From Girardia tigrina (lineage: Eukaryota), in the NCBI GenBank assembly GCA_001938485.1, contig MQRK01249777.1, forward strand, positions 1 through 52,972: a DNA stretch of 52,972 nucleotides, in the 5' to 3' direction. The position numbers and the translations under genes are program-made. Shown piece after piece: positions 1 to 52,557 of this stretch (position 1 is its first letter; every line of letters starts with the position of its first letter). The notes under the pieces were generated by a model. That model did not search any database. It saw only the letters and a list, made by a program, of their open reading frames with translations, and was not told where the DNA came from.

Positions 1-978
1 CTTTATGTACGTGTTAATATATGTAAAATTTTAAATTGTAATAAATGTTATTTTTCTGTTGTATATTCATTTTTGGAACTTTATGTCATTTTGTTCTCAA
101 ATAGCTGCCGCACCCTGTAGTTGTACGAAATATTCTTTTAAAGAAAGTATGGGGAAGTGAAAAGAGGTATTAAAGAAACACTTTTGTAAACTTTTTGAGC
201 ATACTGAGTGTTAGGAAAAATGCAAGTTTTTGCACATTTATTAGACTTATTTATAGAGTTATTCTTAATTTTATTTAAAGTTGTCCCGTTTATCAACAGA
301 TATTATATGTTATACATGTACCGAAGCATATTTCATCTAACTGACGCGGAACATAATCTTTTTTTCGGCTCACCTCGATCACACAATAATTTTACCAGAA
401 AATTAATAATAATACCAAAATAATAAATCAATAAGTACAAGAATTATGACTTAACACTGTACATTATCTCGGTCAATTTTTTTATATTTATTATACGTTC
501 GTTGTACGTTGGGCCACACAATTCGACTCCACCATTCAAAAATAAACATGTAAATTCACACTACTTTCATACCATCTGCTCCTAGTCAACGCTCCACGAT
601 CACATTCATTTTAAAATGTCTAGTAAACCCATGTACATAATTCTTAACGCGAAATTCTCCACCGAGAAACTCTAATACACAGTAGCGGACCATATTGAAC
701 GCACGAGTATGGATAATTTAATCATTTTAGCGACGGTAGACCCATAACCCGCAATCACATCTAATAAAATTTTTGCTAGTCAGATCATTTTTTTAATTTG
801 CATTTTCCGCAAAGGGGAAAGATAAACCCTTCACATACAGAGCCTGAAACACAGAGTACGAAACAGAATAAACACATCACCACATGTAAACTTTTTTAAA
901 CACATAACTTTATATTACTTTTGATTTTATTTCAATTAAATATTTTCATCAAAATTGAAATTAACTTCTTTACTTTAT

Positions 979-1020
979 AATAAATCTTTGCATAAATCTT
1001 TGCATAAATCTTTTAATAAA
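979..1020. repeat. 12-bp tandem repeat (TAAATCTTTGCA) x about 3
   Basis: Directly visible: taaatctttgca taaatctttgca taaatcttttaa. Confidence 0.8.
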
Positions 1021-1330
1021 CCTACCGTAAAATTTATTTTATTTCTTGCATAACTTAATTTTTACATTAAATTTCTGAAAATCTTATTTTAACATATCTA
1101 TAACAATATTTTACGGAATGTAATTGTTTAATTATTAATTTGATAAGATTGTAAATTCAAAAATTTTATGAACTCAACAACGCTCCAAAAACAGTTCTTA
1201 AAAGATGTTTCAACAAATAAGAGATTAAATCCTTGGAAATTTTTTCATTTTTTATAGGTTTTATTAAGTTTTAATACCAATTTTATATTTTTTCAGACAA
1301 TACTAAAATCTAGATATTTAAATTTTTTAA

Positions 1331-2251
1331 ATTAGTTTAGATAAGCTTTTTAAAAAGTCCAAATGTAAAGACGTGAATAACAATGCTAAATGCAGATCTC
1401 CTGACAAAAAGTTATTGTTCAACGAAGATGATGAATCCCAGGCCATAGAAGAAATATGGGATACTATAAAAAATAAAAAACTCAATATGAGATATCTAAA
1501 AACCGGTGATTCTATATCCAGACTCATTGACGATTGGGCTACTGAAATAGCAAAAACCAGAAAAAAGAAAAAACAACTTCAAATCCAAGACGAAATTGTT
1601 AAGGATCCCATGAAATATTTTACAGAAAATTATAATTTAACAGAAAAGAAACAAAATAAAAACGTTAAGAAAGCTTGTCACATTCTTCAACAAATCTTGT
1701 TTGACACCTTAAAATCGGATGGATTAAACGATTATTTCAATTATATTTTATCTCAAACTCCCAATAAAAATAAAATAATTAAAAAAATCTTTAAAGATTT
1801 ATCAAAAAACGGAAAAAAATCGTCCATGTATCCGATAGACTATTCTGATGAAAGTCCTAAACATAAGACATCAGATTCTTCGGATTCTTCGGAATGTTCC
1901 GAAGAATCCCTCAGTGATCACAGTTCTTTCTACGAAAAATATGATCTTTCAAAGCTTGTTGAATGTGAATGTCATAATTTTAATTTACCAGAATTCCCAC
2001 AATTTTCCTTTCTAAATTGCGATGGTCGAATCATCAGTATTCCGAACTGGGAAATCGAAAGAATAATTAATAAATATTTCTTCTCTCCGGAAGAAGCTCC
2101 AAAACCAGAAGCTCCGAAATTGTTTGCGGCGAAAAAAGTCGATGAATTTGGTAATTTACAAAGTCAGTTGGCGCTGAAACGAGCTCAAACTCAAAAGAAA
2201 AAGGAAATCAAGAAAAAGGATATAAAAAGTCGAATAAAAGCGAAACAATAA
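1331..2251 (+). CDS. Orphan intronless ORF A (about 300 aa, Lys-rich, Ser/Asp-rich linker, C-terminal CxCH motif); paralog of ORF B; true start unresolved
   Basis: The frame is open 1331-2251 (the ORF track starts at GTG 1373) in very AT-rich DNA, with AATAAA near 2312. It aligns by eye with ORF 2367-2969. The first in-frame ATG (1487) lies downstream of the start of homology. An upstream ATG at 1168 runs into TAG 1255-1257 and would also need a frameshift near 1328. Confidence 0.6.
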   Translation: MSLDKLFKKSKCKDVNNNAKCRSPDKKLLFNEDDESQAIEEIWDTIKNKKLNMRYLKTGDSISRLIDDWATEIAKTRKKKKQLQIQDEIVKDPMKYFTENYNLTEKKQNKNVKKACHILQQILFDTLKSDGLNDYFNYILSQTPNKNKIIKKIFKDLSKNGKKSSMYPIDYSDESPKHKTSDSSDSSECSEESLSDHSSFYEKYDLSKLVECECHNFNLPEFPQFSFLNCDGRIISIPNWEIERIINKYFFSPEEAPKPEAPKLFAAKKVDEFGNLQSQLALKRAQTQKKKEIKKKDIKSRIKAKQ

Positions 2252-2366
2252 GCACTAAAAAATCAACTTTTATTTTATTATTTCACTCAAATAATGCAAC
2301 TCGTTCACTTTAATAAAAGTTTTCTATTTTACTTTTATTTTATCATTTTTATATTTAATTATATAA

Positions 2367-2969
2367 TTATTTTAAATATTTTTTAAATAATTCCGTAAAT
2401 TCAGAACTCGGTATTTCTATCTGTTCGTTTTGGTCGTTTCCTATGGTAAATATTGGTAACTCAAAGGGTTTGTGACATTTACAATGTCTATTCTTCTTTA
2501 CACCTTTTTTCACAGTGATTTCTTTATATTGCTCATAATTTTCATTTATGAACATTGGAAAATGGTAATTTAAAAACTCTTTACTTTTTCGTTTTTTCAA
2601 TTCTTTACATTTCAAATATTCCAATAAGAAATCTGAATTCACTTCCGATGGTTTGGAAATCGTGTCACAAAAACGTTTTATGTCTTCATGTAAAGTACTA
2701 ACGCTAAAGTAACTGTGAATGTTTGAAAACATTCCCTTAGACAACGGGTCACAATTTATATCTTCCATTGAAACAAGATTGTTGAGGGAGTAAATTTGTT
2801 TGACATCTTCCACATTATTTTCCCAATAATCGAGAAATTCTTCCGCATTCTTCTTGGATTGGATATATTTACTTAAATGTCGTAGGTCTAATCTGTTGTC
2901 AAGAATGGCTTCCAATTGTTGACAATTCAAGTTAATGTGGTCTAAAGGATTTTGGTTTTTCCTGTTCAT
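2367..2969 (-). CDS. Orphan intronless ORF B (200 aa), distant paralog of ORF A
   Basis: ATG-to-TAA ORF of 200 aa. It shares N-terminal (N..L.xR.L...D.W), DP and C-terminal CxCH/ExPxF/IxIPxxE/KY motifs with ORF A. Confidence 0.7.
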   Translation of the reverse strand: MNRKNQNPLDHINLNCQQLEAILDNRLDLRHLSKYIQSKKNAEEFLDYWENNVEDVKQIYSLNNLVSMEDINCDPLSKGMFSNIHSYFSVSTLHEDIKRFCDTISKPSEVNSDFLLEYLKCKELKKRKSKEFLNYHFPMFINENYEQYKEITVKKGVKKNRHCKCHKPFELPIFTIGNDQNEQIEIPSSEFTELFKKYLK

Positions 2970-3215
2970 TTTACGGGTGGCAAGTGTCTTGGAAGTCTTA
3001 CTACAATTATGTCAGTAAAACTAAATATCGAAATATAAATGAAGAATAGATCTTATTTTAAACCTTTCAAACCATTCTTTAATAATTTGGATCAATATTA
3101 CATTTTATGATAACTGAAAATAATTTTATTTGTATTATGTATATAAATTCATTATTTATTCATTATTTGAATAGGAGTAAATTAAAATATTAGAAACGTA
3201 AAAGAAAGAGTTTAA

Positions 3216-3419
3216 CCCATTAACGCCGAACGGGAACATTCGTGCCCAGCTAATAAAAATGGCTGTAAAAGTAAAGACATTGCATTTAGCTATGTTTCGT
3301 TGATAAGGTGTGTACTCTGAAGGTTCAGAACACATACGGAACATGTTTTGTTTCTCTGTCACCAGGCATTATGAAAAATTATGAAAAATTCATATTACAT
3401 AATTCTCGGCATTAATGGG
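3216..3419. mobile_element. piggyBac-type MITE
   Basis: TTAA on both sides; TIRs CCCATTAACGCCGA / TCGGCATTAATGGG. Confidence 0.8.
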
Positions 3420-3499
3420 TTAAATAATGATACTAAGTTTTGATAGAGCGTATGAAGGTAAATGACTAGGGTGACTTACAAAATACAACTTCAAAATGT

Positions 3500-4205
3500 A
3501 AAATATCGACGAATCGCAAAATTAATATGATTTGTTTCAAGTCTTTTCACATTCAAATTCAGTATTTACCGAAAAAAATTAGATGTGAAGTTATTTAAAA
3601 ACATGTTATCACGATATAAAAAAACTGACAGAAAACTTATGGAAAAGATTTGAAAAATTTCCAAATAAGGAATCAGGTTGGATTCGTGACTAATTTTCTT
3701 TTGATTTCTTGAATTCCAATATCACTTGAACTGAAAGGGAACAGTTCATCAATATTTCAAGGGACGAAATATTTCGAATTTCATTTAAACTTTGACTTTC
3801 CACAGATTTAAAGAAGGCTGTAAACATTTTAATACAATTTGCATTAACCTACTTACTTGAAACTCGTTTTTCCTAATTAATGGCTATTAAAACAAGATCT
3901 CACTCTCATTTGGATCAACACGATGACTTACCGCTTGCAATTGCCAACATAAATCCAGATGTAAAAGCTATCATGAGATCTTTACAAATTCATGCTTCAC
4001 GTTAATATTTGTAAATATAAAACTTTAGCTGTGTCACTATGTATGCATAAATAAAACCGTTCTCAAACTTATTAATGTGTTAAATAATGACAATTATGTG
4101 TTTTATTTCAGTATAACTACGTTGATGATTGAAAAAATATTCACCGTTTACCAAGGGCTCGCAATGATATTTTATACAACATGAGGGTTCGTACATCAAC
4201 CGCTG
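3500..4205 (+). mobile_element. Degenerate hAT (Buster/Charlie-like) transposon, 3' remnant
   Basis: About 3810-4004 translates as AVNILIQFALTYLLETRFS*LMAIKTRSHSHLDQHDDLPLAIANINPDVKAIMRSLQIHASR*, a hAT C-terminal dimerisation-like region. It ends ...AACCGCTG followed by TTCTAGTG (NNNTANNN, Buster-type target). The left boundary is approximate. Confidence 0.7.
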
Positions 4206-4297
4206 TTCTAGTGTCATATATTTAAAAATTAAAAATATAAATAATCATATATTAATAATTATGTTTCAAAAATATTTTTATTATTCATTCACATTTA

Positions 4298-5070
4298 TTA
4301 GAAACATATGACTGCATTTTGAGAATCACATGACACGATTGTCCACTTTTTGTTTTCTGAGGGTGACCCATTTATACAATGACCATCTCCTTGAGATGCT
4401 CCATCTTTGAAATTTCTAAAATAATCAAGATGTAAAATATTTTCTTTAATCACAATTCTAACTTATATTTCAATGGAGTTCCATCTGAAAATGTCCACTT
4501 TCCTTCTTTGTCACTACCATCAATCCAAAACGACCCTAAATTTTTTTGCTTTACCATATTGAAAACAAGTTTCTAAAATTAATAAAAAATAAATTATTAA
4601 AATATTATTATGAAATTTTTCACATTGATTTCTTCATTTTCTAAACGAATCAGTTTCAGATCCTGACTTTTACAATAATTAACAGCTTCATCATAAGTTG
4701 TCTTTTCCTCTGTTAAGTAAATTGATACAGTTTCTGTGACGGTTTCTGTCTCTGTCTTCGTTTCTGTTTATAAATGCTTTTTATAACTTCATTAAATTAA
4801 TATAATACTACATATAACTAATAAATCAAAATAATTTTATATCCATTCTTAATGCTGGCAGAATTCTACTTGGCTAATAGAATTTTGTTGTTATCTTTTG
4901 TAGAAGAAAAAATTACTATTAAATTTTTTAATAAATTATTTTTTTTTATTGACTGCTGATTAAATGTTCACATTATTATTTATTGTCATCGAAAAGGAGT
5001 AAGTGTGAAAAGTTTGAGAAAATTGATTGAGTAGAAGGCCTTCAAAAATAGGTTTCTAAATTCTATGGGT

Positions 5071-5116
<46 letters not shown>

Positions 5117-7002
5117 NNNNNNNNNNNNNNNNNNNNNNNNNNNNNNNNNNNNNNNNNNNNNNNNNNATATATATATATATATATATATATATATCAAATT
5201 TTATGAAATAGTTAATGTCCAAATTTATTATTTATTAAACTTTAAAAAATTTGATAGTTGTTAAAGAAAATTCATTAGCAGACCTGATTCAGTGATCGTT
5301 GGTGTGGAATCTTTATAGCAAATAACGGCCATAGGAGAATTACAATTAACATCATTCCAAAACCCATTGGGATAAAATAAGCCATGTAAACAGTGTTCAG
5401 CCTTTTGCCAGTTACTCGGTTCTCCAGGGTGCCATTTACTTTTTATAAAGATTAATTCTCATTGGTGATAATAACCAAATTTTGATTTTACTTGTACACA
5501 ATTCTGTTACCATTTTCGTATATCCAATTTCCTTCTGACTGTCTATCATTTGCGTCCATCCAATACTGTCCAAGTTTTCTTTGTACAGCAAAATTGTACA
5601 CCATTTGCTGAATATTTTATAAATATGAGAAATATTATTTGAAAATGAATATAATTAAAAGATAATATTAATTTATAAACATTTATTTTCTCTGATTGTA
5701 TTTTCACCAAATTCAAACCCTGTTGCTTGCAAAGGTTGACAGCATCCTGTTGACCGACCTTGTTAGGAAGAGCAACTAACTGATTCTCTTCAAAAGTAAC
5801 TATTTTAAATGAATATCAGAAATTTTTAATAGAAATTCCTATAATTTTCATACCAAGATTAGTTAATGGTTTGTCTCGATAGCAAATAACAGCAATCTTA
5901 ATATTGCAGTTGACATCATTCCAGAATCCATTCTGATAAAATAAGCCATGTAAGCAGTGTTCATTGTTATTGCCATTATTGGGTTCTCCTGGATGCCATT
6001 TACTTTTTGTGAAAGATATTTATTTTACAACCTTTTCTATTTAAATTCAGCTTTACCTGTAAACGATTCTGCTACCGTCTTCATAAACCCAGTTACCTTC
6101 AGAATGTTTATCATTCGCATCCATCCAGTATTGGCCTAAACCTCTTTGTACAGCAAAATTATAAACCATTTGCTACAAAAATTTCAGAAAATTATTTTTT
6201 TTCAAAAAGAAAAACTGGATTTTTACATTTGTTTTTTCATCTTGTATTTTAACAAGATTCATTCCTTGTTCTTTACAAAGATTAATGGCTTCTTGATGAT
6301 TAGCTTTAGTCGGAAGTGATAGAAGTTGATGTTCTTCATACGTTACTATACAAAAAGGTAAATTATTGATATAAATAATCAAAAATCAGTATTTATATTC
6401 TACCAATGTTTTTCATAATTTTATCTTGATAACAAATAACCGCTATGTTAATGTTACAGTCAACATCATTCCAGAATCCATTTGGATAAAACGAACCATG
6501 TGCACAATTTTCTTTGCCAGCACCGTTGTTAGGCTCTCCACCATGCCATTTACTTTGAAAAATTTATATGTAATTCAAGTTTGATTACTTTTTTTTTATC
6601 AATACATACGTGTAAACAAGACGGTTACCATTTTCGTATACCCAAGTTCCTTCTGATTGCCTATCATTAGCATCAATCCAATATTGACCTAATTTTCTAA
6701 CAACTGCAAAGTTATATACCATTTGCTAAATATGAAATTTATTTAGAATTATCAAATATAATTCATCATACATTTGTTGCTTCATCTTCAATTTTCACTA
6801 AACTCAAACCTTGAGACCGACAAAGGTTAACAGCTTGTTGATGATTAACCTTGTTTGGTAAGACTACAAGTTGGTTCTCATTGAGTGAAGCTAATAAAAT
6901 ATTACTTTAAAAATATCGGAAGGAAGTTATACCATCTAAAAATTTTATAATCCCTAAAACATTCCATGTTAAAACAAGAAAATTTATTTGTCGAAAGAAC
7001 AT
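4298..7002 (-). CDS. Secreted multi-domain C-type lectin (signal peptide + 4 CTLDs; EPN, EPN, EPS, degenerate), multi-exon, paralog 1
   Basis: ATG at 7002 (MFFRQINFLVLTWNVLGIIKFLD). GT-AG introns are about 41-70 nt, plus one larger intron with a repeat and a gap. Each CTLD spans 3 exons, with YWxDANDRxSEGxW, KWHxGEPN/S, FWNDVxC and AVICY motifs. Stop TAA at 4298-4300 follows ...[10 protein letters not shown]. Confidence 0.92.
4817..5116. mobile_element. Copy of dispersed (TA)n-containing non-autonomous repeat family (HINE/DINE-1-like?)
   Basis: Reverse-complement of the core GGAATTTAGAAACCTATTTTTGAAGGC...CGATGACAATAAA and of the AAGAATGGATATAAAA end also seen at 22411, 26222, 34958 and 38858. 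Confidence 0.75.
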
Positions 7003-8854: not shown

Positions 8855-9038
8855 TGTCAGATCGGATAATTATAAACCAGACAGTGACAGCGTTTGTTGT
8901 CGCTCATATTGTATAAAGATAAACGAAAATAATGTGTAGTGAAAATGTCGAAAATTTGTTTAAATAATCAGAATTCGGTCAAAGGTTTGTAAATCTTGTT
9001 ATTGAAATAAATCTTTATTTTCGTTATTCTCGTTCACA
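8855..9038 (+). repeat. Putative 5' LTR (TGT...ACA, 184 bp)
   Basis: Begins TGT, ends ACA, contains AATAAA near 9007, and is directly followed by the GC-rich gag region. There is no second copy to confirm it. Confidence 0.55.
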
Positions 9039-10819
9039 AGCTATCGCGGCTTTGTGATGAAGACTCTAAAAATCGTGCCGGTGTATGACGGCTGCGGGTA
9101 TTTTTCCATTTGGATCCAGCGATACCACGAGTGCGCGGATACGCTCAAAGAGAACAAGCTGGTGATGCTACCACTTGCACTGACGGGCGAAGCGTTAGTC
9201 GGACTTTTTTTCCGTGGATTCAGTGACACAACGCGACAAGATTTTGAGAAGAGAACAGCGGCACTTACAGAAGCGTTCGCCACAAGCCCGAGGCTATAAA
9301 GGGTGAGATTTGCCTCCTGACGGCTTGCGCCCGGTGGGGGCGTAGATTTTTCATGGCTGATTTGAAGCGGTCAGCGGCTGTCATCTGTGCTAACGGAGGC
9401 AACTGGAACGCTTTTGTGGCTCAGGAGTTCATAAATCGGCTGCCCGAGGAATCCATGAGAAGTGTGGAGGCCGAGGCGCTCAACAAAACGTTGGATCTGG
9501 AAACCGTTGTCCGGTTGGCTCGAGTGTCATGTCAAGGCAAGACGTGAACATACTGATGAGACTGCGGCAGCTGCACGGCAGTTGTATCGGCAACCACCGT
9601 TCCCGTCACCCAATATAGGAGAACGGATATGTTATTGTTGCGGCGGGATTGGGCATTTGGCGCGTGAATGTGCGACCGGGTGGTGGAGCGCTCATAATAC
9701 AACCGATCGAACCGCGAACCGAGATAATGGACGGGAGAGCAGATGCTTTAGCAGCGGTCGGGTGGGCCACATTGCAAGGAGGTGCCAGCGCCGCAACACC
9801 GACCGAGCGGGAAACGTATAGCGGGTACCCACTATTGTGCGGGTGGGGAGCCTGGTTGCGGTGATGCGCGACTTTTATTCGTTCTGGTGAACGTATGTGG
9901 AAGGACTGTAAGGGCAATGGTCGACAAAGGATGTTCTACGTCAGTCGTAACGAGGACGTTGGTCCCATCGGCAAAGCTGGTTCGAGTTGAAGAAGTTTTT
10001 CGGATGATGGATAGATCGGCGGTGGGCGTACAATTCGGAGCGACCCTTTCGATTGGGTGCAGCGGCAAGCGGATCGAATGCCGTGTTCTAGTTGGTACCA
10101 GAATTTGTCGAGTCGAGGACGGGGATTCTTATTGGCATGGACGCAATCAACCAACTTGGGGGCGTGTGGGTGCCAAGCAGAGGCGGTACCACAAAGTTTG
10201 GACGGATAGAATATCAGGCAGCAGTGGGTAGAGCGAAGCAACCGGCACGTACGCGGATTGACGATTCTGATTTTATAGCCGAGTTTGACGGCCACTCATG
10301 GACGGCATTATGGAAGTGGAAGAGCGGTGAGGAGCCACCAGAGTCACCTGGGGGAGCGGTCGCATACGCGTCGGCCAAGTAGTACGAAGAAGATGTGAGC
10401 AAGTTGTCCGAATATAATTAAAACGGGTAGCTCATCCCGTTTAATGGGAACGCAAAGGCAATTTTGCCTCTGATAGCGGTGGTTCAGGTGGCCAAAGGGA
10501 CGTTATGACCGGTGCTAGACTATAGAGCCTTAAATGAGTTCGTGTCCAGCTACGCCGCAGAAAGCTTGGTGTCCGCTGGAAAACTGCGCAAATGACGGAA
10601 GATGGGGTCATCGCTCGAGATAATCGATTTGAGGCGGGCATATCTGCAAATTAATGTGAACTCTATTAATTAATCCACCACGAGGGGAAGATGTGCTGCC
10701 TGACGCGAATGGGCTTTGGATTGAACACGGCCCCAAAAATTATGAGGCGCATCATGGACCACGTGCTCGGATCGGATCCACAAATTGCGTAAGCTGCAGA
10801 TGCGTACTATGATGATATC

Positions 10820-11875
10820 ATGATTGACAGCAGCAAAGTATTAGCGGAGCACGTGGTGGAGGTGCTCGATAGCTTCCAAAGGTTGACAAACGCTACGAGG
10901 GGCGATGGATCGGTCAGATCCAGTGGAATGAGGGAGCTACTCATAAAACGATGCATCTGCCCAATCAAGCAGACTATCGAAGAGGAGCAGCTTCGGGTGG
11001 AGTGGAAATTGGTCACTTCAGCAGAGAACCGAGCAGATCGCCTCACTCGCGTGCCTAGTAACTGTCTGATAGCGTCAAAAGGTCGACCGAATGTGGCGGC
11101 AGTAACAATGGAGGGAGAGGGGCAGCCGATAGATCGTCTGCAGGCGCTCTATGTTATCCAACATTTCGGGGTGAAGCGGACAATGTTCTTGGCGAGGAAA
11201 TTGTGGGGTCCATGGCGAATAACTGAGAAACAGGTGCAGATGGTGGTGAAAGGATGTCTTCAGTGCGCATCAATCGATCCGTCACCGGTAAAGTGGGAGA
11301 AATGCGAAATGTGTGTCAAAGAAACATGGAAGCGGCTCGCCATGGACGTGACACACACATCTGAAGGAAAGTACATGACACTGGTCGATTGCGGACCGGG
11401 GCGGTTCGCGGTATGGAGAAGGATCGCTTCAGAATGCGATGGAGATTTGTATGCCGCTCTTAAAGCGGTGTTCAATGATTTCGGCCCACCACAAGAGCTT
11501 TTACTGGATAATTTCACGAAACATCGTGGAGCGGCAATCCGACGATTGCTTTCGGAAATGAGTGTCGAAATTCGGTTTCGGTGCGCGAATCGACCCAGTG
11601 GAAACGGTATCGTTGAACGCTGCCATCGGATTATCAAGCGCATGGTAAGGCAAAGTGGGAAGCCGGTCCATAATATGGTTGCGTGGTACAACGCCACTCC
11701 AAATTCGACGGGTGTGATTCCGGCGTCCACAGTATTTGCACAACGGCGGCGACTGCCGCTACTGATCGATTTCGCGGACCAGCTTCAAAAGGACACTAGA
11801 GTTGTCTGGACGAGAGATCTACAAGTTGTGGACGCCGTGTTCGTGAAACCGGCGAGCAACACGTGCACGACGTAG
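10820..11875 (+). pseudogene. Gypsy pol remnant: RT YYDD region fused to RNase H C-terminus and integrase
   Basis: 351-aa ORF with the integrase HHCC-like and DDE regions. Confidence 0.85.
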
Positions 11876-12399
11876 TGGAAAAGATCAGTCGTGAGCGGAT
11901 TCTGCCCACCCCATCAGGTCGAGATTGACGGAGTCCCGTTCCAGGTGTCACACCTCAGGTGCGTGCACGAGAGCGGGTCAACAATGCCATCAGAAGGACT
12001 ATCAAGTTCGCGAGTGGTCCGCAGATCGACGAATGCAGTGATAGCTCAGACGAGGAGGACGAGCAGACATTGAATAACATAACGGATACCGTTAAAAACA
12101 GTCAGACTCAATCCGACGAGGTGCGGCAACCGTTCGGGCGGTAAGATTTGCTGATTATATGTGCACAGGAGTGACAGAACCAGATCCGAGCGAGACTCTG
12201 CAGTGCATAGAAGGCGTTCCACTATTTTTAAATAAAATATAAAAAACTTCAAATTCGAATGTTTTTATATTTGTCATAACTTTCAAGAATTTTCACATTT
12301 TTTGTAATAAATATATTTTGGATTCCTTAATAGTTATAGTTTATTTATTTATATTTTTGTCATGATGAATTTTCAAAAAATATTGAATTTCTGGACCAT

Positions 12400-30400: not shown

Positions 30401-33400
30401 AGTATATACGGTGAAATAGGTGAAATGGTTTTTTTAAATACTGAGAAATCAATTTAAAAATACAGGCCTTTTATAATTTGTTTATATTTCTTTTATATAG
30501 GAATTTAATTAAACATTTATTTAACTTTTTTGATTATTTATTTTTATCTAAAATATGCATAAATGGAGTAATCATTATGTCAATGGATTGAAGAGCTACA
30601 AAAATGCAACATCCATAAATTCAAAAGAATGGACAGGTGGTTATCAATAGGTAAAGATCATAACATCAATATAGCTAGCAAATAGTATAGAATTTTATTG
30701 TCCACCGAAAGATGAAGATAAACTAACAAATGAAGAAATTCAGAATGCTTAAGAAATGAATTGGAAAACTTTTGATAAATTCAAACAAGAGCATTTGCAG
30801 CATAACGTTACAGTAGATTAAGTTACTAAAAGAGTCATGCAAATGGCAGGAAGTTTTTTCAAGAAATATATTTGCAAACACATAATTGGAATAGCAATTC
30901 ATCCAAAATATGGACGTCTAAAATACACCACCATCAAATGCCAAAGATGATTTAATTAATGAAAAATGCAAACATGGTTGACCACGTAAGATTTCAAAGG
31001 AATTGTTGGTCGATTTGTTAATAAAACTTAGTTGTATTTATTTTTATTTTTAAAATAATATTTTTACTAAATACTGATCATGTATTAAACTGATAGTTAC
31101 TTAAATAAATACTTACCAAAAATTAATGAAACACTGAGTATCGTTTATTTTTTTTACTTACCAATTAATTAACTTACTGATCGATTATATATTATTATAG
31201 TGGCCATTTAAAATAAAAAAATAGTGATCAATTTAATAAAAATACTGATAAATTAATTTGTTGATATTAAAAATAGTTTTATATTACTATTTGCTTTTCA
31301 TATTCATGAAAACTCAATTATTTAGCTTATTACTCGTATAAATATTTTTTATTTTATATTTCTTTAGCTTCAGAATTGGAAAAAGTCATGATGAATGCTG
31401 ATATCATTTTGGAAGATAATATTATAAAGTAAATGTATTTTATATTATTTTGATAAACTCATAATCACTTTCTCAGATTTGAAGATGTACCAATTGTCAC
31501 ACCAAATGGAGACATTCTTGTCGAAAAAATGAGTTTTGAAGTACTTTTTACTTATCATAAAATTTATAAATCATTAATCGAAGGTAAAATCTGGCTGCAA
31601 TGTTTTGATATGCGGTCCAAACGGCTGTGGCAAAAGTTCTCTGTTCAGAATATTGAGTGGAGTTAGCTTTTATCGATATTTACAAAATATATTGTAAAAA
31701 AATAAATGTACAATAACCATAATCTATGAGGTATATTATGGTTTAGTAATTATAACAACAATTATTAATCGAGTGCGGAGCGGAAATTGATTCTATTGAC
31801 CGAACATTTTGCCAGTTTATAAAATTTAAAAGAAAAATAAATTAAGTAAATAAATAAAATCATAAAATAAAGTTTAAAGTAATTAAAAGTAAAATAAAAT
31901 AAATAACTTATATAATTTAAATAAATACCGTAAATTCCGGACTATAAGCCGCACTTAAAAACCTGAAATGAGTTATAATTTAAGAGTTGCGGCTTATACG
32001 TTAATGTTTTAAGTGCTCAAAAAATATTTTAAATTAATTTAAATATTCTTTAAACAAGTCATAATTCAAAATATTTTACGGTATATTTTGATTTTACGGT
32101 TAGTTTACGTTATAATAAATTATTTCAATTTTAGCCATGAACCGCTCTTCATATACCTCAGAGTGGAAATTAAAAGCAATTAAATTAGCTCAATCAAATG
32201 GAAATCGTAAAGCTGCATTTCAACTCAATGTCAATGAGTCAATGATCAGAAGATGGAGAAAGCAAGAAGATGAGTTGAGACAAGTTAAAAAATCTCGTAA
32301 GAGCTTTCGTGGAAACATTCCAAGATGGGCACATCTTGAAGATGATCTTAAGAATTGGATCTATGAAATGAGATCAATTGGTAGAAGCATTTCAACGGTC
32401 TCTATACGGCTTGTGAGGAATATTTGGTGTATAATTGTTTTTTGTAGTGTTTGCATGTTTAATGTCGTGTGTTGATTTGGGATTGTGCCTCTCCTAACCA
32501 GATGGATTATCAATATTTAATTTTTTATAATCTGAAACTAATTTATTTAAAGTTAGATTTAATATTCAAATTTTTAGTTTTTATTATTGCAAATTTTAAA
32601 TAATTTTAATGATTTTATTTTTGTAAATTTTTATATAATTAAAATCAAATTAATGTTTAAAAATGTCTATAAAAATATTTTATTTTAGCCAATCAAACTT
32701 AAATTAAATATTTTAAAATAAAATAACCTTTTCAAGCATAGTTCAGATTATAATGGGAGATAGTGAAAATTGATTAATGGATTCTAGTGAAAGCAATAAT
32801 ATTGATCATCATAAAGATGATAAAATTTGTGAATGTAATAAATGTTCTGTCAAATGTGTGAGTTCTCTTAACACGGCTCAAAGCCAAGACACTAGCTAAA
32901 AAATTGGGAATTATGAATTTCTCAGGAGGACAATCTTTGTGCACCAGATTCATGAAACGAAATAATCTTTCGATTCGATGCAAAACGACATTAGCCCCAC
33001 GCCTTACTCCAGATTTTGAAGAAAAGGCCAGCATATTCCGTGAGTTTTGTCAAACAAAAATTACAGAGAAGAATATACATCATGGTAACATTTTCAATAT
33101 GGATGAAGTATCTATCCCTTTTGATAAATATTTTGGTGAATATATTATTTAGTGTTATTAGTTTATTTCCTTTGAACTGATTTATTTAAAATGGGCTTAA
33201 AATCTTTACATTTAGTGTGCGGCTTATAATACGGCGTATTTTACATGCGGCTTATACGTTAATGTTTTTTTTGGGAAAAGCAGACAATGTGCGGCTTATA
33301 ATACGGTAATTAAAATAAAATAAGTAAAAAGAAATTAAAAAAAATTAAAGAACTAATTAAATTAACGAGTGAAATAAATGAGTTAGGTGAATTTATAGCT

Positions 33401-38919: not shown

Positions 38920-41900
38920 NNNNNNNNNNNNNNNNNNNNNNNNNNNNNNNNNNNNNNNNNNNNNNNNNNTATATATATATGGAATTTAGAAACCTATTTT
39001 TGGAGGCTTTTTACTCAATTGATTTTCTCAAAATTTTGCACACTTACTCATTTTCGATGACAATAAATGATAATGTGAAAATTTGATCAAAAAAAACTTT
39101 TTAAGGTCCCAAAATGGGAAAAAACGGAAAATTCTGAGTTTCAGATCAATATTAATTGAAAAAGATCTATTTCAAATTTATAAGTTTACTATAAGTTTAA
39201 TTTATAAGTTTATAAGTTTATTAAATTAAATTTATAAGTTTAATTATTAATTTTTCATTGTTTTTTTAATTAAAAGTTTTTAAATGTTAAATTTTTTTAA
39301 GTTTTTAAAACTTTGTTGGCAAAGTAGAGTTCTGTCTACATAATGAATGGATGTAAAAGATTTAATTTTTTGATTTACTAGATATTGTTAAAAATAATAA
39401 ATAAAATTAAAATTTATTTTCTTTCAAAAAAATGATTGTATTCTAAACATTTTAAATAAACATTGAATAGTTAAGGTTGATATAGTTGGAAATTTGGTCC
39501 ACAATAATGTTTATTTAAGTCAGAAACATATGACTGCATTTTGAGAATCACATGACACGATTGTCCACTTTTTGTTTTCTGAGGGTGACCCATTTATGCA
39601 ATGACCATCTCCTTGAGATGCTCCATCTTTGAAATTTCTAAAATAATAATCATCAAGATGTAAAATATTTTCTTTAATCACAATTCTAACTTATATTTCA
39701 ATGGAGTTCCATCTGAAAATGTCCACTTCCCTTCTTTGTCACTACCATCAATCCAAAACGAACCTAAATTTTTTTGCTTTACCATATTGAAAACAAGTTT
39801 CTAAAATTAATGAAAAATAAATTATTAAAATATTATTATGAAATTTTTCACATTGATTTCTTCATTTTCTAAACGAATCAGTTTTAGATCCTGACTTTTA
39901 CAATAATTAACAGCTTCATCATAAGTTGTCTTTTCCTCTGTTAAGTAAATTGATACAGTTTCTGTAACGGTTTCTGTCTCTGTTTTCGTTTCTGTTTTTT
40001 AAAATGTTAATAAAATAAAAAAATGTTGTTAAGATTGATTTATTTTATTTATTTTTTCCATGTATTTTACTTTTATTTTTATTTGCTTTTAATATTTCTA
40101 AAACAACATTTATCTACTAACCTGTTTCAGTTGTTGTGGATGTTGAACCTTTGTAGCAAATAACGGCCATGTTAGCATTACAACCAACGTCATTCCAAAA
40201 TCCATTTTGGTAAAATAAACCATGTAAACAGTGTTCATTGTTGCCTGCATTATTTGGTTCTCCAGGGTGCCATTTACTTTTTTTAAGTTATATTCTCATT
40301 TAGGATAATTAATATTTTTATATTACTTGTACACGATTCTGTTACCATCTTCGTAAATCCATTTTCCCTCTGATTGTCTGTCATTGGCATCCATCCAATA
40401 CTGCCCGATTCCTTTTTGTACGGCAAAGTTATACACCATTTGCTGCATATTTTGAAATAAAAGGAAAAATATAATTTTAATGCAGTCTTTCATTACAAAA
40501 TTTGTTATATGATGGCTTATAATTAGAACAGCGATAATCAATATTTGCAATTTTATTAGGTTATCTAATAAAATTTATTCTAAGAATGTAAACAATTAAA
40601 TTTATCATTGATGATTACGAAAATGTACACATTACGAAGGCTACACATCATTTGCGCACCGTAATAAATTGTATTAAAGTAATAATTTTAGTTTTAATCA
40701 AGTATTTTATTAAATGTAATAAAATTTTGTTTTTGTCAATTTGGGCGCCAAGCTTTATAAAACTTTATCACACGGTGGCTCGTTAATTTTTTCATAACTC
40801 CATAATGATTTCATCCCTTTAATACTAAGTTTATCGAAACCGTATAAAAATCTACCATGTTCATATTTAAGACGATTTCGGTTCGATCTCACAGTTGCTT
40901 AATTCATAACAATTTATAGACACTTAAAAATGGGAAAAATATAAAATCTATAAAATGAAATTATATTTTAGTATTAAATTAAATTATTATTTACATTATT
41001 ACACTTAACACATTGAATGCTGAGTACGAGATATCTCGTACTTCAATATTCATTAGTTAGACGCTAAGTACGAAATATCTCGTACTTTGGCTTACATTAC
41101 TAAGACGCTAAGTACGAGATATCTGCTGCGCGCATGAGATATGCCTGCCGCGCGGCAGTAAACTTTTTTTTCCCACGCGTAGCGCGCGTAGCAGACGTTC
41201 GGTGCATGATGTCAACAGCAGTCAATGTGTTAATAAAATACTGGATTAAAACTAAAATTATTACTTTATTACAATTTATTACGACGCCCAAATGAACATT
41301 TTATTACGGCTTCCAAATGGCAGCGCCCAAATGACAGTGTCCAAATGAACTATTCCCCGAAAATGTAAGCATATAAGTTGTTCATTCCACTAGCTTATTC
41401 TACATAGACGCTTTCGACGAACTAAATACAAAGTCGTTATCAAAACTAGTATGAGTAATAAATAATTCAATAATAATATAATAATAGTAATAATAAATAT
41501 TATTTTGGTCGAAGAAGTAGGAAGTGATGGAGCATTTCGTTTATTCCTTATATAAATATTGATTTGTAAGAACAAAGTAAAACAACAAACTCAACGACTT
41601 GTAATTATTTATTAAAATGAATATTTTAACAATTATTTTATTAGTAATATTTATTCGTCAATAAATATTTAATAAATTTTAAAGATTGTTAAATAGGTTT
41701 TTAATTTTACTTTCAATTTAATTCTTTTACTTATCGCTATTTTAGCAGATCATTACATTTTTAATAATAAAAATAATATTAAAGTATGAACATTTATTTT
41801 CTCTGATTGTATTTTCACCAAATTCAAACCCTGTTGCTTGCAAAGGTTGACAGCATCCTGTTGATTGACCTTGTTAGGAAGAGCAGTTAACTGATTCTCT

Positions 41901-44900
41901 TCAAAAGTAACTATTTTAAATGAATATCAGAAATTTTTAATAGAAATTCTTATCATTTTCATACCAAGATTAGTTAATGGTTTGTCTCGATAGCAAATGA
42001 CGGCAATGTTAATATTGCAGTTGACATCATTCCAGAATCCATTCTGATAAAATAAGCCATGTAAGCAATGTTCATTGTTGCCAGCATTATTGGGTTCTCC
42101 TGGCTGCCATTTACTTTTTGTGTAAGACATTTATTTTACAAATCTTATTTGTTAAATTCAGCTTTACCTGTAAACGATTCTGCTACCGTCTTCATAAACC
42201 CAGTTACCTTCAGAATTTTTATCATTCGCATCCATCCAGTATTGACCTAAACCTCTTTGTACAGCAAAATTATAAACCATTTGCTACAAAAATTTCAAAA
42301 ATTATTTTTTTCAAATAAAAAAAAGATCTTCACATTTGTTTTTTCATCTTGAATTTTGACAAGATTCATTCCTTGTTCTTTACAGAGTTGTATAGCTTGT
42401 TGTTGATTAACCTTATTAGGAAGCGATAAAAGTTGGTGTTCTTCATATGATACTATATAATATAAGACTTTATTCATTTCATAAATGTTATATAACTCTT
42501 ACCAATATCATTCAAAGGTTGGTCTCGATAACAGATAACAGCAATATTGATATTACAAGGAACATCATTCCAGAAACCATTTGGATAGAATAACCCATGC
42601 AAACAGTGTTCATTGTTACCAGCATTGTTTGGTTCTCCAGCATGCCATTTACTTTGAAGACATTCAATATAATTATTTCAGTTTTTTATTTAACTTAAAT
42701 ACATACGTATAAACAAGACGGTTACCATTTTCGTGTACCCAAGTTCCTTCTGATTGTCTATCATTCGCATCAATCCAATATTGTCCTAATTGTCTCGCAA
42801 CTGCAAAGTTATATACCATTTGCTACACATGAATAACATGTTTTATAAGTACTACAAATAATGCAAATATACATTTGTTGCTTCGTCTGTAATTTTCACT
42901 AAACTCAAACCTTGAGACTTACAAAGATTAACAGCCTGTTGTTGATTAACCTTGTTTGGTAAGGCTAAAAGTTGGTTCTCGTTGAGTGAAGCTAATGAAA
43001 TATTACTTTAAAAAATATTTTGAAATGAAGTTCTACCATTAACAAACGTTGATATCTCTAAAACACAGTATGTGAACAAGAGAAAATATAATTTTTGATT
43101 ATACATTTTCAAGTATTGTAATATTTGAAATCAACGTTTATTTTATATAAATATTTTTATTGTTGATGGGACATCTGTTTTTGAAATAATGTTTTTATTG
43201 TACAGTTGTTATTGAAATCTGATTTTTTTAAATAAAATTTTTAAAATAAACTCTACATGTATATTTAAATATTATATTTACTTTATATGCAAGTAATTGT
43301 TTTCAATTTAAAACTATTTTAAATTCATTTTCTTCTTATTTAGCTTTGGCCTCAATGTGGGGGTAGGATTACAAAACCATCAAGTTTCAAGCTTTTCTAT
43401 ATACCTCAGGTTAAATATTCCTTTTTAATAAAAATATTATATCAAAGTTTATATTAACCTTCAAGAATTGTTTGTTTTTTATTTAGCACATGAGGTTTTT
43501 AGGAATGCAATATATTTCATCTGAGCTTCACTGTTATAAATATAAAATGAGACTTGTAAAATTTAGTTAAAACTAAAAGTTTAGTAGTGTAAAAATAGAC
43601 CATCTTCTTGTTCTCGAGTGTTTAACAAAATTTACTTCAATCGTATTTTTACTTCAATTACAAATATTTTAACAAATACGAAATACGATTGAAAATTAAT
43701 AACAAATTACAAACTCATTTTTTAGTTTTATTTATTTATTTTGATACTCCATGTGACCATTTATTGGCTTTTATTTTATAACTGAACTTTTCCGACAAGA
43801 ATGCTCATCAACTTTTCTAATTACCCTCAATGGTCGTTAAGATCTCAAGACATCTGATGGCAAGTAGGACAAATGAAATATTTAAGTATTTTAATACAAT
43901 AGCCATAGTACTGATACATCTAATTTTAGAACATAACTGGAATTCAATTTCCAAGGTTTCGGATTAAAATTGTTTAGAGGTGATATGAACGCTACATAAT
44001 ATAGGTAACAAAATAGTATTATGACACTGGGTCAATTCAAAACCTTTGTGAAATTATTCTACTAGAAGATAAAATAACTCGGTTTTCCTTTCGGATTTTA
44101 ACGTAGTTGATTACTACCTTAGTACCTTATGGTTCATATCTTAGAACCTTAGTAATTCTTATTTGAACCTAAAAATTCAAATATCAAAAAAATATAAAGT
44201 TTCCTTCAATGTTGTTCAAAATAGCGGTCAGATTACTTACTTAGTTTATCCATAATATGAAAGTTTATTTACGGTATCATTTGATTGCATATTAATTTAA
44301 ATTACTCGATGGTAAAAATTAAATTTCTAAATCTATCATATATGTTTCTCTCCTAATGGAAAAATACATTTGGAATGTTTCATTTTATTGCAAGGTGATC
44401 TGAAATTTGCTCTTTCACTCTTCTCGGCCTATTACCATAGCTTTTATCTAGTCATTAGTACTGTGGGTGTTTTAAGAAATGTTTTGATTACATGTACATA
44501 TTTTGCTAAACTCAGTATATTTTATTACTAGAAAATTTATAGGCGGCAAGCCGCCCATGAAAAGATTTCCAATAAAAAGTTGTTTAATTCTTCAAATCAG
44601 AATCATGTAGTCTCCTGAGCACGTTGTAAGTGCTTTGAAACAGCATCACATTCCAGGTGAGCGCGATTTACCGCTTGAGATTGATGAGCGCGTTGTAATT
44701 GAAGTCGCTCGGACTCCTTAAACTTTTATGCTGAGTGTTATTGGGCATTTTTTACGCTGTTCAGACGTGACGATTGTCCATAGTATTAGCTGTAGTCGGA
44801 TTTGAATGTGGGTGTTTATAAGAAAAAAATTTAACATTTTTGAAAAAAATTAAATTGATATCCAAACAGAGATTATATATTTCCTTATACTTTTTTATTT

Positions 44901-50900: not shown

Positions 50901-51758
50901 TGGACAAAAATTTGGTTTTGGTCAGTTTGAATTTTAAAATAAATGTTTCTTATCTATGGTGAAATGGATGAAAAATTATGGATTCTTGGAATTGCCGTTT
51001 CTATTTGATTTCGAAATTTATATCCACAATCTTCAAATTTTATTCTGAATGAATATATTCTTTTTATTTTTTAAATCCTCTTTATTAATCTTGTCGTCAA
51101 CTTATATTTTTAGTTAGTTTTTTCTTAAAACTAAAAATATATTATTTTAAAATTTTAATGTAAGTTTAGAAACCATACATGACAATAGGTACTTTAAGAG
51201 ATCAGATAATATATCCTAACTCATTACAAACGAATAAAACAGAAGAATTGGATAAAAGTTTATGTAAAATAATGGCTAAAGTAAGTTATTTTTGCCTATA
51301 TTATTTGTTCCAGTTGACAATTTTGAAAGGTTGAATTGGAATATATTGTGGCACGAGAAGGAGGTTGGGATTCTATCAGAGTAGATTAACGATTATATCC
51401 AATATTTTTCATCAATTTACTCCATTAAGGATTGGAATGAGGTTCTTAGTGGTGGAGAAAAACAAAGAATAGCAATGGCTAGGTTATTTTTCCACAAACC
51501 TCAGTTCGCTATTCTAGATGAATGCACTAGTGCAGTTAGCGTTGATGTAGAGGGAATACTGTATGGATATTGTCGTGAAATTGGTATCACACTATTTACG
51601 GTCTCCCACAGAAAATCATTGTGGAAATATCACGAGGTTTGAGTGCTTCCCAATTATATAAAAAGATAAATTTAATTTAGTTTTATCTTCATATGGACGG
51701 CAAGGGTAAATATAATTTTAAACCCATATCGGAAGATGTTGAAGTTTTTGGATCCTAA
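15464..51758 (+). CDS. ABCD3: Peroxisomal ABC transporter subfamily D (ABCD3/PMP70-like); 16 resolved coding exons, N-terminus missing
   Basis: Exons are in consistent phase with GT-AG introns: 15464-15552, 15596-15692, 18394-18464, 21831-21954, 22000-22056, 22102-22314, 25197-25266, 27262-27540, 31368-31428, 31477-31540, 31584-31661, 43344-43409, 51170-51280, 51330-51380, 51430-51636, 51681-51758. Motifs: NSEEIAFY (EAA loop), Walker [17 protein letters not shown], Walker [17 protein letters not shown], and the C-terminal ...VFGS*. Confidence 0.93.
18040..18222 (+). mobile_element. Penelope-like element 3' fragment (same family as 24090-25110)
   Basis: [27 protein letters not shown], and downstream DNA closely matching the reverse complement of 24186-24385. 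Confidence 0.8.
19081..19630 (-). mobile_element. Diverged LTR related to the TGTGAGGAAT solo-LTR family
   Basis: The minus strand starts TGTGAGGAATATTT like 21170 and 32412, and ends AATAAAT...TCAAATGT...ACA. No TSD was found. Confidence 0.45.
19773..20957 (-). mobile_element. mariner element (mauritiana/Mos1-like TIRs), interior is an assembly gap
   Basis: Perfect TIRs TTAGGTGTACAAGTATGAAATGCGGATT with TA flanks. The transposase C-terminus [12 protein letters not shown] is on the minus strand. Confidence 0.9.
21170..21640 (+). mobile_element. Solo LTR (TGT...ACA) with 5-bp TSD ACTAT
   Basis: ACTAT|TGTGAGG...TTAACA|ACTAT; homologous to 32412-32873. Confidence 0.9.
22411..22908. mobile_element. 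Copy of (TA)n-containing dispersed repeat family
   Basis: TTCCATTCTTTTTATTAGCTTAC-(TA)n-GGAATTTAGAAACC...AGAATGGAATAAAA...TTTACTAG. Confidence 0.75.
24090..25110 (-). mobile_element. Penelope-like retroelement (RT C-terminus + GIY-YIG endonuclease + pLTR), frameshifted
   Basis: [18 protein letters not shown]; [13 protein letters not shown]; [29 protein letters not shown]. Confidence 0.92.
24101..24139 (-). ncRNA. Minimal type I hammerhead ribozyme in Penelope pLTR
   Basis: Minus strand GTT-CTGACGA-T-GACGG-TTAAA-CTGTC-GAAA-TTAA-TA-AAC. It has a CUGANGA core, a 5-bp stem II, GAAA, a palindromic ATTAAT stem III, a UA cleavage site and a 3-bp GTT/AAC stem I. Confidence 0.72.
25952..26157. mobile_element. 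pogo/Tigger-type MITE
   Basis: Imperfect TIRs CCGTGTTTTTCCATGTATAAG / CTATACACGGAAAAATACGG followed by TA. Confidence 0.7.
26222..26605. mobile_element. Copy of (TA)n-containing dispersed repeat family
   Basis: Same core and ends as 22411 and 38858. Confidence 0.75.
27900..28260 (+). mobile_element. Degenerate N-terminal remnant of a Tc1/mariner (rosa-like) transposase
   Basis: KLAPNSRTI...[21 protein letters not shown]...VQKLTKD, an HTH-linker-like pattern. Confidence 0.4.
28632..30292 (+). mobile_element. Tc1/IS630-like DD34E transposon with long TIRs built of 22-bp tandem repeats; transposase pseudogene 28950-30081
   Basis: [12 protein letters not shown] and [12 protein letters not shown] (34-residue spacing after repairing one frameshift). 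TIRs are about 145-165 bp, CAGGGGTTTTCATTTTTATAAAGCCC..., with TA flanks. Stops and frameshifts are present. Confidence 0.9.
30560..31020 (+). mobile_element. Degenerate MULE transposase C-terminus (SWIM finger)
   Basis: NWKTFDKFK...[15 protein letters not shown]...[28 protein letters not shown]. Confidence 0.7.
31928..33306 (+). mobile_element. pogo/Tigger-family transposon (Brinker DBD + CENP-B HTH), internally deleted, interrupted by a solo LTR
   Basis: TA|CCGTAAATTCCGGACTATAAGCCGCAC ... GTGCGGCTTATAATACGG|TA. The [18 protein letters not shown]... continues across the LTR (SIRL|[10 protein letters not shown]) to IFNMDEV, then is truncated. Confidence 0.9.
32412..32873 (+). mobile_element. 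Solo LTR with 5-bp TSD CGGCT inserted in the pogo ORF
   Basis: CGGCT|TGTGAGG...TTAACA|CGGCT; removing it restores the pogo frame. Confidence 0.92.
33800..34950 (+). mobile_element. Degenerate Gypsy remnant (integrase)
   Basis: SCPICQISK...[14 protein letters not shown]...GIIDKFSR...[11 protein letters not shown]...[16 protein letters not shown]. Confidence 0.8.
34958..36650. mobile_element. Reverse-oriented copy of the (TA)n repeat family, split by a Tc1/mariner insertion
   Basis: The core is at 34958-35322 and the end (AAGTAGACTAATAAAAAGAATGGAA) is at 36611-36650. Confidence 0.75.
35323..36610 (-). mobile_element. Tc1/mariner (maT/rosa-like) element inserted in (TA)n; interior is a gap
   Basis: About 50-bp perfect TIRs CAGGGTGTCCCAAAAATATGTATACAC...; minus-strand C-terminus [45 protein letters not shown]. 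Confidence 0.88.
36775..37860 (+). mobile_element. Degenerate MULE transposon (FLYWCH-like + DDE) with GACACTTGATCC subterminal repeats
   Basis: [15 protein letters not shown]; [15 protein letters not shown]; [10 protein letters not shown]...VTDCYFH; about 6 tandem 17-20-bp repeats at 36775-36905. Confidence 0.8.
38858..39381. mobile_element. Copy of (TA)n-containing dispersed repeat family (gap in microsatellite)
   Basis: Same core and ends as other copies, plus an internal TTTATAAGT tandem. Confidence 0.75.
39520..43106 (-). CDS. Secreted four-domain C-type lectin (EPN, EPN, EPN, degenerate), paralog 2, nested antisense in an ABCD3 intron
   Basis: ATG at 43106 ([23 protein letters not shown]) and the same exon layout as 4298-7002. 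[12 protein letters not shown] and FWNDV motifs occur three times. Stop TGA at 39520-39522. Confidence 0.92.
41009..41229. mobile_element. piggyBac-type MITE with internal palindromic repeats, in a lectin intron
   Basis: TTAA flanks; TIRs CACATTGAATGCTG / CAGCAGTCAATGTG; GTACGAGATATCTCGTAC palindrome x3. Confidence 0.8.
43130..43235 (-). promoter_or_regulatory. Putative lectin proximal promoter conserved between paralogs
   Basis: Alignable with 7030-7125 (TATAAATATTTTTAT.GTTGA, ACAGTTGTTA, AATCTGA). Confidence 0.5.
44528..45370 (-). mobile_element. Non-autonomous Helitron
   Basis: Minus strand A|TCGTTATATATAAC... ends with the hairpin GGCGGC-TT-GCCGCC about 10 nt before CTAG|T (AT target, no TSD). 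Confidence 0.78.
45567..47142 (+). mobile_element. rosa/DD41D-like Tc1/mariner element with about 180-bp TIRs; transposase pseudogene 45794-46927
   Basis: TA|CAGGGTGACGCAAAATAAACTC...GAGTTTATTTTGCGTCACCCTG|TA; [34 protein letters not shown]; stops and frameshifts. Confidence 0.92.
47757..47870 (+). repeat. (GGAGTC)n subterminal repeat array, probable hAT end
   Basis: TAGGGCTGCGGAGTCGGAGTCGGAGTC... plus inverted GACTCCGAC. Confidence 0.55.
48020..48885 (-). mobile_element. Degenerate Merlin (IS1595/ISXO2-like) transposase
   Basis: [32 protein letters not shown]...[30 protein letters not shown]. Confidence 0.9.
49285..49521. mobile_element. piggyBac-type MITE
   Basis: TTAA flanks; TIRs CCCTCAGAGTACGGAGT / ACTTCGTACTCTAAAGG. 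Confidence 0.78.
49991..50863. mobile_element. hAT-type non-autonomous element with 8-bp TSD AAATATTT
   Basis: TIRs CAGAGGTACGCAAACT / AGTTTGCGCACCTTTT; GCGCCCC subterminal motifs. Confidence 0.75.
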
Positions 51759-51898
51759 TATTTTTTGATTTATAGTTTATTAACTTTTAGAATTTTAAAA
51801 TTAGTTTTTGATTCTTTTAATAAAATAAACTCAGTCGCATAATGTACTTTATTTTTGTTTATTTAATTGAAATTATTTTTCAAAATATGATCCTGGAT

Positions 51899-52557
51899 TT
51901 AAGAAGCGGTAATGGATAAAGAGTTATCATCATCATCTTCTTCGGTACTTTCTTGCATCAGTACCGCTATGTCATTTCGGTTGATTTCCAACAAAGCCTG
52001 TCTTAATATTTCTGGCTAGTAAAACATTGGAAATAAAATTATCAGAATGTATATATGTATATCACTTTATCGTCCTTAAGTTCTAATCCTTTGAGCCAAA
52101 ATAATAACATTTGAATAGCTATTTTGCTTGGCTGACTACCTGGATTATGATGTTTTAGAGACTGTAAACGAGATTCTGAAATTTTAAGAGCTGCACCAAG
52201 TTCTTTCCAAGATACACCGATACTTTGAGCAATGCGGGTGAGGAGACCCATATAATCCTCTGAAAATTAATAAGTTATTTTGTTTACCGTACTAAAATAA
52301 TACCCAGTATATTTCTGTTAAACGGAGTACTTCTTAACGGTTTATGGGCTGTTAATCTTTTTTTTGGAATAGATATTAATAACTGACATATTGTAACTTC
52401 TTCTTCGACCATTTGGTATTGCACTAGACCTTTTCTAGCCTTTTTATCAGTAGATTCTATTTGTTTCTTTACCAGTTTGTTAGTGATCACCATAATGTAT
52501 CCTCTGTAATGGTCAATTGCTCTTTGTGCATAAGGATCGATTGCTTTGGTTTGAAAC
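51899..52557 (-). CDS. 3' exons of a death-domain protein (DTHD1-like, UPA C-terminus + death domain); 5' part unresolved or outside the window
   Basis: Exons at about 52557-52306 (FQTKAIDPYAQRAIDHYRGYIMV...TICQLLISIPKK), about 52259-52065 (LLTRIAQSIGVSWKELGAALKISESRLQSLK...QMLLFWLK) and 52015-51899 (PEILRQALLEINRNDIAVLM...*). The pattern recalls the DTHD1 C-terminus. Confidence 0.75.

Follow-up and report, generated by a model that had tools for sequence, protein, structure and literature searches.

The window examined here is the entire contig MQRK01249777.1 of Girardia tigrina, 52,972 nucleotides long and part of an assembly of 1.43 Gb in 255,254 contigs. Close to its left end lie two long open reading frames, placed tail to tail and 115 bp apart. 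An earlier note on this DNA had described them so, and both the coordinates and the shuffles bear this out. The features of the locus are as follows.

120–905, no strand: single-copy (unique) DNA, by comparison with the organism's own genome
906–1189, no strand: truncated end of a high-copy repeat, showing 89–95% identity with the listed copies; separate from the pair
1331–2251, plus strand: ORF A, 306 codons from stop to stop, first ATG at 1487 (254 aa from there)
1338–1357, plus strand: candidate 3′ splice site (predicted), in phase 0 with ORF A and in the top 0.2% of the window's AG sites
1439–1612, plus strand: N-terminal shared block of ORF A (QAIEE..KDPM), predicted helical; p 56/5000
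1964–2080, plus strand: C-terminal shared block of ORF A, CECH and then a predicted beta-hairpin and helix; p 0/5000
2252–2366, no strand: AT-rich gap of 115 bp between both stop codons
2367–2969, minus strand: ORF B, 200 aa from its ATG, 214 between stops
2373–2483, minus strand: C-terminal shared block of ORF B, CKCH and then a predicted beta-hairpin and helix, from alignment and model
2742–2921, minus strand: N-terminal shared block of ORF B (QQLEA..CDPL), predicted helical
3216–3419, no strand: 204-bp element whose inverted arms measure 19 nt, flanked on either side by TTAA; it lies upstream of the ORF B ATG at a distance of about 250 bp and is separate from the pair

ORF A and ORF B are real coding frames, far longer than chance. 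At the local base composition, the probability of such stop-free runs is about 5e-12 for ORF A and about 2e-8 for ORF B, and in 2000 shuffles of the 2-kb region no frame reached 200 codons (the maximum was 155). The remaining five frames of each ORF carry 8–36 stops. Base use by codon position is similar to that of host exons, with a G-rich first and a T-rich third position, and GC3 is 0.28 in ORF A and 0.33 in ORF B compared with 0.31 in host exons. The coding constraint proposed in the earlier note draws its support from ORF length and codon-position bias. The ATG of ORF B stands in an AAAATG context, and candidate polyadenylation-type hexamers occur on both strands of the gap between the ORFs. 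With a pI of 9.2 the predicted ORF A protein is basic; it contains several clusters of lysine, a Ser/acidic linker and a Lys-rich tail. The ORF B protein has a pI of 7.0. Neither contains a signal peptide or a membrane segment (maximum 19-residue hydropathy 0.44 and 0.27 for ORF A and ORF B, respectively).

The start of ORF A is less straightforward. Its first 52 open codons contain no ATG, the first being codon 53, and an open stretch of this kind would arise in about 1% of cases by chance if it were non-coding; the N-terminal block shared with ORF B begins within this stretch, 5′ of the first ATG. The candidate acceptor ending at 1357 is accompanied by weaker candidates at 1335–1345, as scored with a splice matrix built from 11 local introns only. 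These 11 introns, measured nearby, are 44–73 nt long. Exon enumeration, which considered acceptors up to 1349 only, gave no convincing upstream ATG exon for ORF A, and possible donors occur about 100 bp upstream of ORF B. The two ORFs had been called intronless, and the bodies of both frames indeed need no intron, but for ORF A the term is unproven because of its late first ATG and the strong acceptor candidate at 1357. Flatworm spliced leaders that end in ATG can provide a start codon, as passages of PMC12582326 describe; a leader of this type would fit the phase-0 acceptor of ORF A, and we suggest that the start codon may be supplied either by cis-splicing or by a trans-spliced leader joined to an acceptor near 1335–1357.

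The unique DNA further upstream, at 120–905, exceeds its flanks in CG between about 500 and 900, contains a short hydrophobic ATG frame and a minus-strand donor-like site near 850, and matches nothing in Pfam or Rfam. A promoter, upstream exons of ORF A and the start of another gene are all possible identities for it. The repeat at 906–1189 is truncated on its left; sister copies keep the right end and extend further left. The element at 3216–3419 is presumably a piggyBac-like MITE. Rfam gave no match in 1–4300.

It is unlikely that the locus is an artefact of assembly, since six sequencing runs from two studies contain 61–77% of the sampled words of the stretch, and two DNA-type runs cover 26/30 and 27/30 bins of 1–2340. 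No run of RNA type is among those listed as containing the stretch. Four runs from one sample, guessed to be RNA, contain 74–77% of the words of 1250–3100, which exceeds what either ORF alone could give. One guessed-RNA run (X1) has no contig on ORF A; its records are incomplete, and the DNA runs have holes there too. The contig carries animal genes, namely those for a C-type lectin and an ABC transporter and death-domain exons, and the pair lies 2 kb from the spliced C-type lectin gene.

When the two proteins are compared with each other, BLASTP aligns the C-terminal 41 residues at an E of 0.005. A pairwise alignment with shuffle statistics, as the earlier note had proposed, is significant, if modestly: six scoring schemes gave p values of 1/3000 to 19/3000 with full shuffles and 1/3000 to 29/3000 with local shuffles, and the best two collinear ungapped blocks, in a test free of chosen borders, were equalled in 70/2000 cases (p 0.035). 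These values are optimistic because the pair was chosen by eye. With three matrices the score also tops every decoy (150 for ORF A and 142 for ORF B), the decoys being pieces of real long frames from the same genome, exclusive of the window's own loci and of 11 loci picked earlier for their likeness to A or B. The motifs quoted in the earlier note are all present: CECH is found at 1964 in ORF A and CKCH at 2483 in ORF B, in each case directly before an ungapped block of 30 aa with 10/30 identities, and long frames taken from 20 other stretches, 60,109 aa in total, contain no CxCH. The putative family has these two members only, and there is no third to confirm that CxCH is conserved. In single-sequence models of both proteins the aligned C-terminal residues form a beta-hairpin and a helix, at low confidence.

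Not all of the alignment contributes equally. With block borders that were chosen post hoc, on an alignment already seen, p is 0/5000 for the C-terminal block and 56/5000 for the N-terminal 60 aa, but 2415/5000 for the middle and 1556/5000 for everything except the C-terminus, so the claim that the ORFs align over their whole length holds for their two ends and fails for the middle. The DNA of the two ORFs shows nothing notable (local score 29). As judged from the protein alignment, the two ORFs resemble each other weakly, yet more than chance would give. The C-terminal block of CxCH and hairpin-helix carries this similarity, with a small contribution from the N-terminal part and none from the middle. 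That the two ORFs are a duplicated gene pair is favored by the shuffle statistics and by a score above all decoys, whereas the two-block test is marginal and neither ORF A nor ORF B retrieves its partner when the whole genome is searched at E up to 1 or 10, where unrelated stretches outscore the A/B match. We consider that they are probably distant paralogs, the relationship being carried by the C-terminal tail.

Alternatively, ORF A and ORF B could be two unrelated host orphans that happen to lie side by side, their resemblance being a fortuitous likeness of Lys/Asn/Ile-rich proteins in an AT-rich genome. The dissimilar middle, the non-significant result for all but the C-terminus, the two-block p of 0.035 and the selection of the pair by eye would all fit this explanation, as would the finding that chance matches elsewhere in the genome reach 38–40 bits against ORF A. 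A chance match would, on the other hand, have to account for a score that beats all decoys from the same genome, for two blocks whose order and approximate relative position agree, for a CxCH directly before the block in both ORFs and for predicted secondary structure that is in register. We regard coincidence as unlikely.

The earlier note recognized no known domain in either protein, and this agrees with our searches. Pfam, PHROGs and NCBIfam gave best E values of about 0.01, under the cut-off where one exists. Neither ORF has a relative in the Atlas or among PDB sequences, nor in viral contigs, metagenome contigs or phages. An exact look-up gave 0/4, and a HMMER search of 1.84 billion representatives with the two-sequence A/B profile, run with no positive control, returned 0 matches at E 0.001. 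A word-based protein search with both ORFs, confined to proteins of similar length, found no relative. Such blanks say little, because a true COMMD exon of the same genome (Pfam E 7e-10) is also without a match in that search. The word-based search thus lacks or misses this lineage, and the orphan status of ORF A and ORF B may for that reason be a failure of detection. In our literature searches, which could not be made by sequence, no description of such a pair was found.

Within their own genome ORF A and ORF B are each single copy, as protein and as DNA, in searches where a word-based first look selects the candidates and the best of these alone are scored, so that distant paralogs can be missed, and there are no remnants of either ORF elsewhere in the 52,972-nt window. 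A recent retrocopy is unlikely, as no parent gene was found. Several weak matches elsewhere in the genome were judged to be due to chance: a retrotransposon Pol frame with an Integrase_H2C2 match (L006), four further loci (L032–L035), and three loci with an internal stop (L003–L005). The contigs of the last three are 100% identical over 3165 bp, which suggests assembly redundancy or a very recent repeat.

Homology detection failure accounts for many lineage-specific genes, according to Weisman, Murray and Eddy (2020; PMC7660931). ORF A and ORF B resemble the orphan genes described there in that they are apparently coding, single copy and without a detectable relative outside the genome, and differ from them in that their sole candidate relative is an adjacent, inverted and very distant paralog. 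The same phenomenon would also allow that the pair is a strongly diverged branch of a known family of small paralogous dimerizing proteins in which a strand-strand-helix tail follows a helical front, for which we considered COMMD, Spc24/25 and chromoshadow proteins.

The models that bear on this are poor (pLDDT 40.0 and 41.5), and the structural comparison proposed in the earlier note came back empty: Foldseek found no match for either of them at E 0.001, although models of this quality are too poor to exclude any fold. The best VIA Z values from these poor models were 3.5 and 4.5. Among the 45 Foldseek rows listed for the ORF B model (pLDDT about 40) are five chains of COMMD complexes at E 0.6–1.7, and the poor ORF A model brings up Rhino chromoshadow chains at E 3.0 and 3.6. 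COMMD proteins are dimerizing paralogs of about 200 aa, with a helical N-terminal part and C-terminal strands and helix, and the COMM fold forms a domain-swapped dimer; Spc24 and Spc25 are marked by a long coiled coil together with an RWD domain. The likeness of A/B to COMMD (Pfam PF07258) thus lies in size, a helical front and a tail of strands and helix, all predicted in the case of A/B, while A/B differ in having no sequence or profile match, no W-R motif, a shorter final helix and a CxCH. More specifically, Pfam gives no match for COMMD, Spc24/25 or chromoshadow at E up to 10, including HP1-type chromodomain or chromoshadow in either ORF. The COMM model has 7 matching loci in the genome, of which 3 exceed the cut-off, and the A/B locus is not among them. 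Comparison of the A/B profile with three COMMDs of the same assembly yields 0.1%, and the W-R pair that is invariant in those three is missing from the A/B tail. The Spc24 profile (PF08286) does not match the A/B locus either, and finds nothing over the cut-off genome-wide, so that this result is without a positive control. We find descent from one of these families improbable.

Two of the COMMD matches elsewhere in the genome (L040, 1474–2007, and L041, 1444–1935) fall in long frames that run without interruption and have a GC content of 47% and 57%, within AT-rich loci. These frames may represent large exons, but foreign DNA or a second organism in the assembly could also explain them.

The dense layout of the pair had led the earlier note to propose cargo of an endogenous DNA virus or a Maverick/Polinton-like element extending to the left, a proposal that our analysis leaves unsupported. 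Polintons carry polymerase, ATPase, protease, integrase and capsid genes inside inverted repeats, as set out in passages of PMC8097293. With Polintons and Mavericks as described in those passages the pair shares intronless, closely packed ORFs, and such elements are common in this genome, where we found 85 pPolB matches; it differs from them in having no core genes and no terminal inverted repeats within the stretch that the contig covers, in being single copy, and in showing no similarity to ORFs near the genome's own pPolB loci. None of the five core genes was found near the pair on this contig, and A/B match no family. No inverted repeat encloses the pair in 1–4300, and before 9917 there is no other ATG-started ORF of at least 100 aa. 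Among 1205 frames from 20 stretches, 153 kb in all, around 10 of the 85 pPolB loci, there was no relative of A/B (best E 0.11), and nothing similar was found in viral contigs, phages, PHROGs or predicted viral structures. Nor do A/B match a parvovirus-like family, which bears on the planarian virus-like element PEVE, grouped with parvovirus-like sequences in passages of PMC3198968.

Codon use leans slightly toward the host, by +0.02 (ORF A) and +0.05 (ORF B) bits per codon, in what is a weak test: of 16 ORFs from Polinton loci 12 were negative and 4 positive, and two halves of the host set gave −0.02 and +0.09. Nonetheless, the pair could derive from an endogenous DNA virus, a Polinton or another transposon, as accessory cargo or as a relic, with the core of the element left of the contig end or deleted. 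Its long uninterrupted frames stand out where the 11 nearby introns are 44–73 nt, pPolB loci are numerous, the Polinton-locus ORFs include four that are host-like in codon use, and the contig stops in a repeat. An upstream look for pPolB, ATPase, capsid, integrase and terminal inverted repeats found none on the contig, but only 1.3 kb lies between the left contig end and ORF A, and we leave this origin a small probability, the lowest that we assign to any of the explanations considered.

In the reading that we favor, at a probability of roughly 55%, ORF A and ORF B are host paralogs restricted to their lineage, and they encode soluble proteins that may be nuclear. The tail-to-tail arrangement would go back to a host gene that was duplicated locally and in inverted orientation long ago, and fast evolution or lineage restriction would have left relatives outside the genome undetected. 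Each product would consist of a helical front and the shared tail of CxCH and hairpin-helix, which may act as a metal-binding or protein-docking unit. The basic clusters and pI of the ORF A protein suggest that it could be nuclear and bind nucleic acid or chromatin. As for the mechanism, we would favor an adaptor role in which the C-terminal module pairs with itself or with its paralog, the two CxCH half-sites sharing a zinc ion, though this particular step is rather unlikely to be correct. One CxCH provides three ligands at most; to complete a zinc site, another residue or a second protein chain would have to contribute, which makes an A/B dimer plausible and no more. We hold it to be doubtful that the pair represents a new lineage-restricted family forming a zinc-bridged nuclear heterodimer through paired CxCH and hairpin-helix units, possibly replacing a conserved complex that is apparently absent from the lineage.

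If the paralogy holds, the tail would be a small protein module that is unrecognized by current libraries, and the pair may seed a new small domain family and the search for its members in related genomes. Lineage-restricted and possibly nuclear proteins of this kind might have a part in biology specific to the lineage, or might belong to conserved complexes that have diverged past recognition. As it stands, the locus presents two orphans with a weak mutual match, which are common in poorly sampled AT-rich animal genomes, and its interest is modest until orthologs are found.

The remainder of the contig offers some observations of its own. The multi-domain C-type lectin gene is present in two copies with short introns, at 4300–6910 and at about 39500–43100, both on the minus strand, and their matching segments are 68–97% identical; beside the second copy there is no trace of ORF A or ORF B. 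At 9000–12150 on the plus strand lies a decayed retrotransposon, which we take to be Gypsy-like, with a match to an integrase core and a GC content of 52% in a background of 25–30%. Exons of the ABC transporter, presumably ABCD-like, at 31457–31663 and 51170–51760 (plus strand) are spread over 20 kb, and a death-domain exon follows at 52045–52266 on the minus strand.
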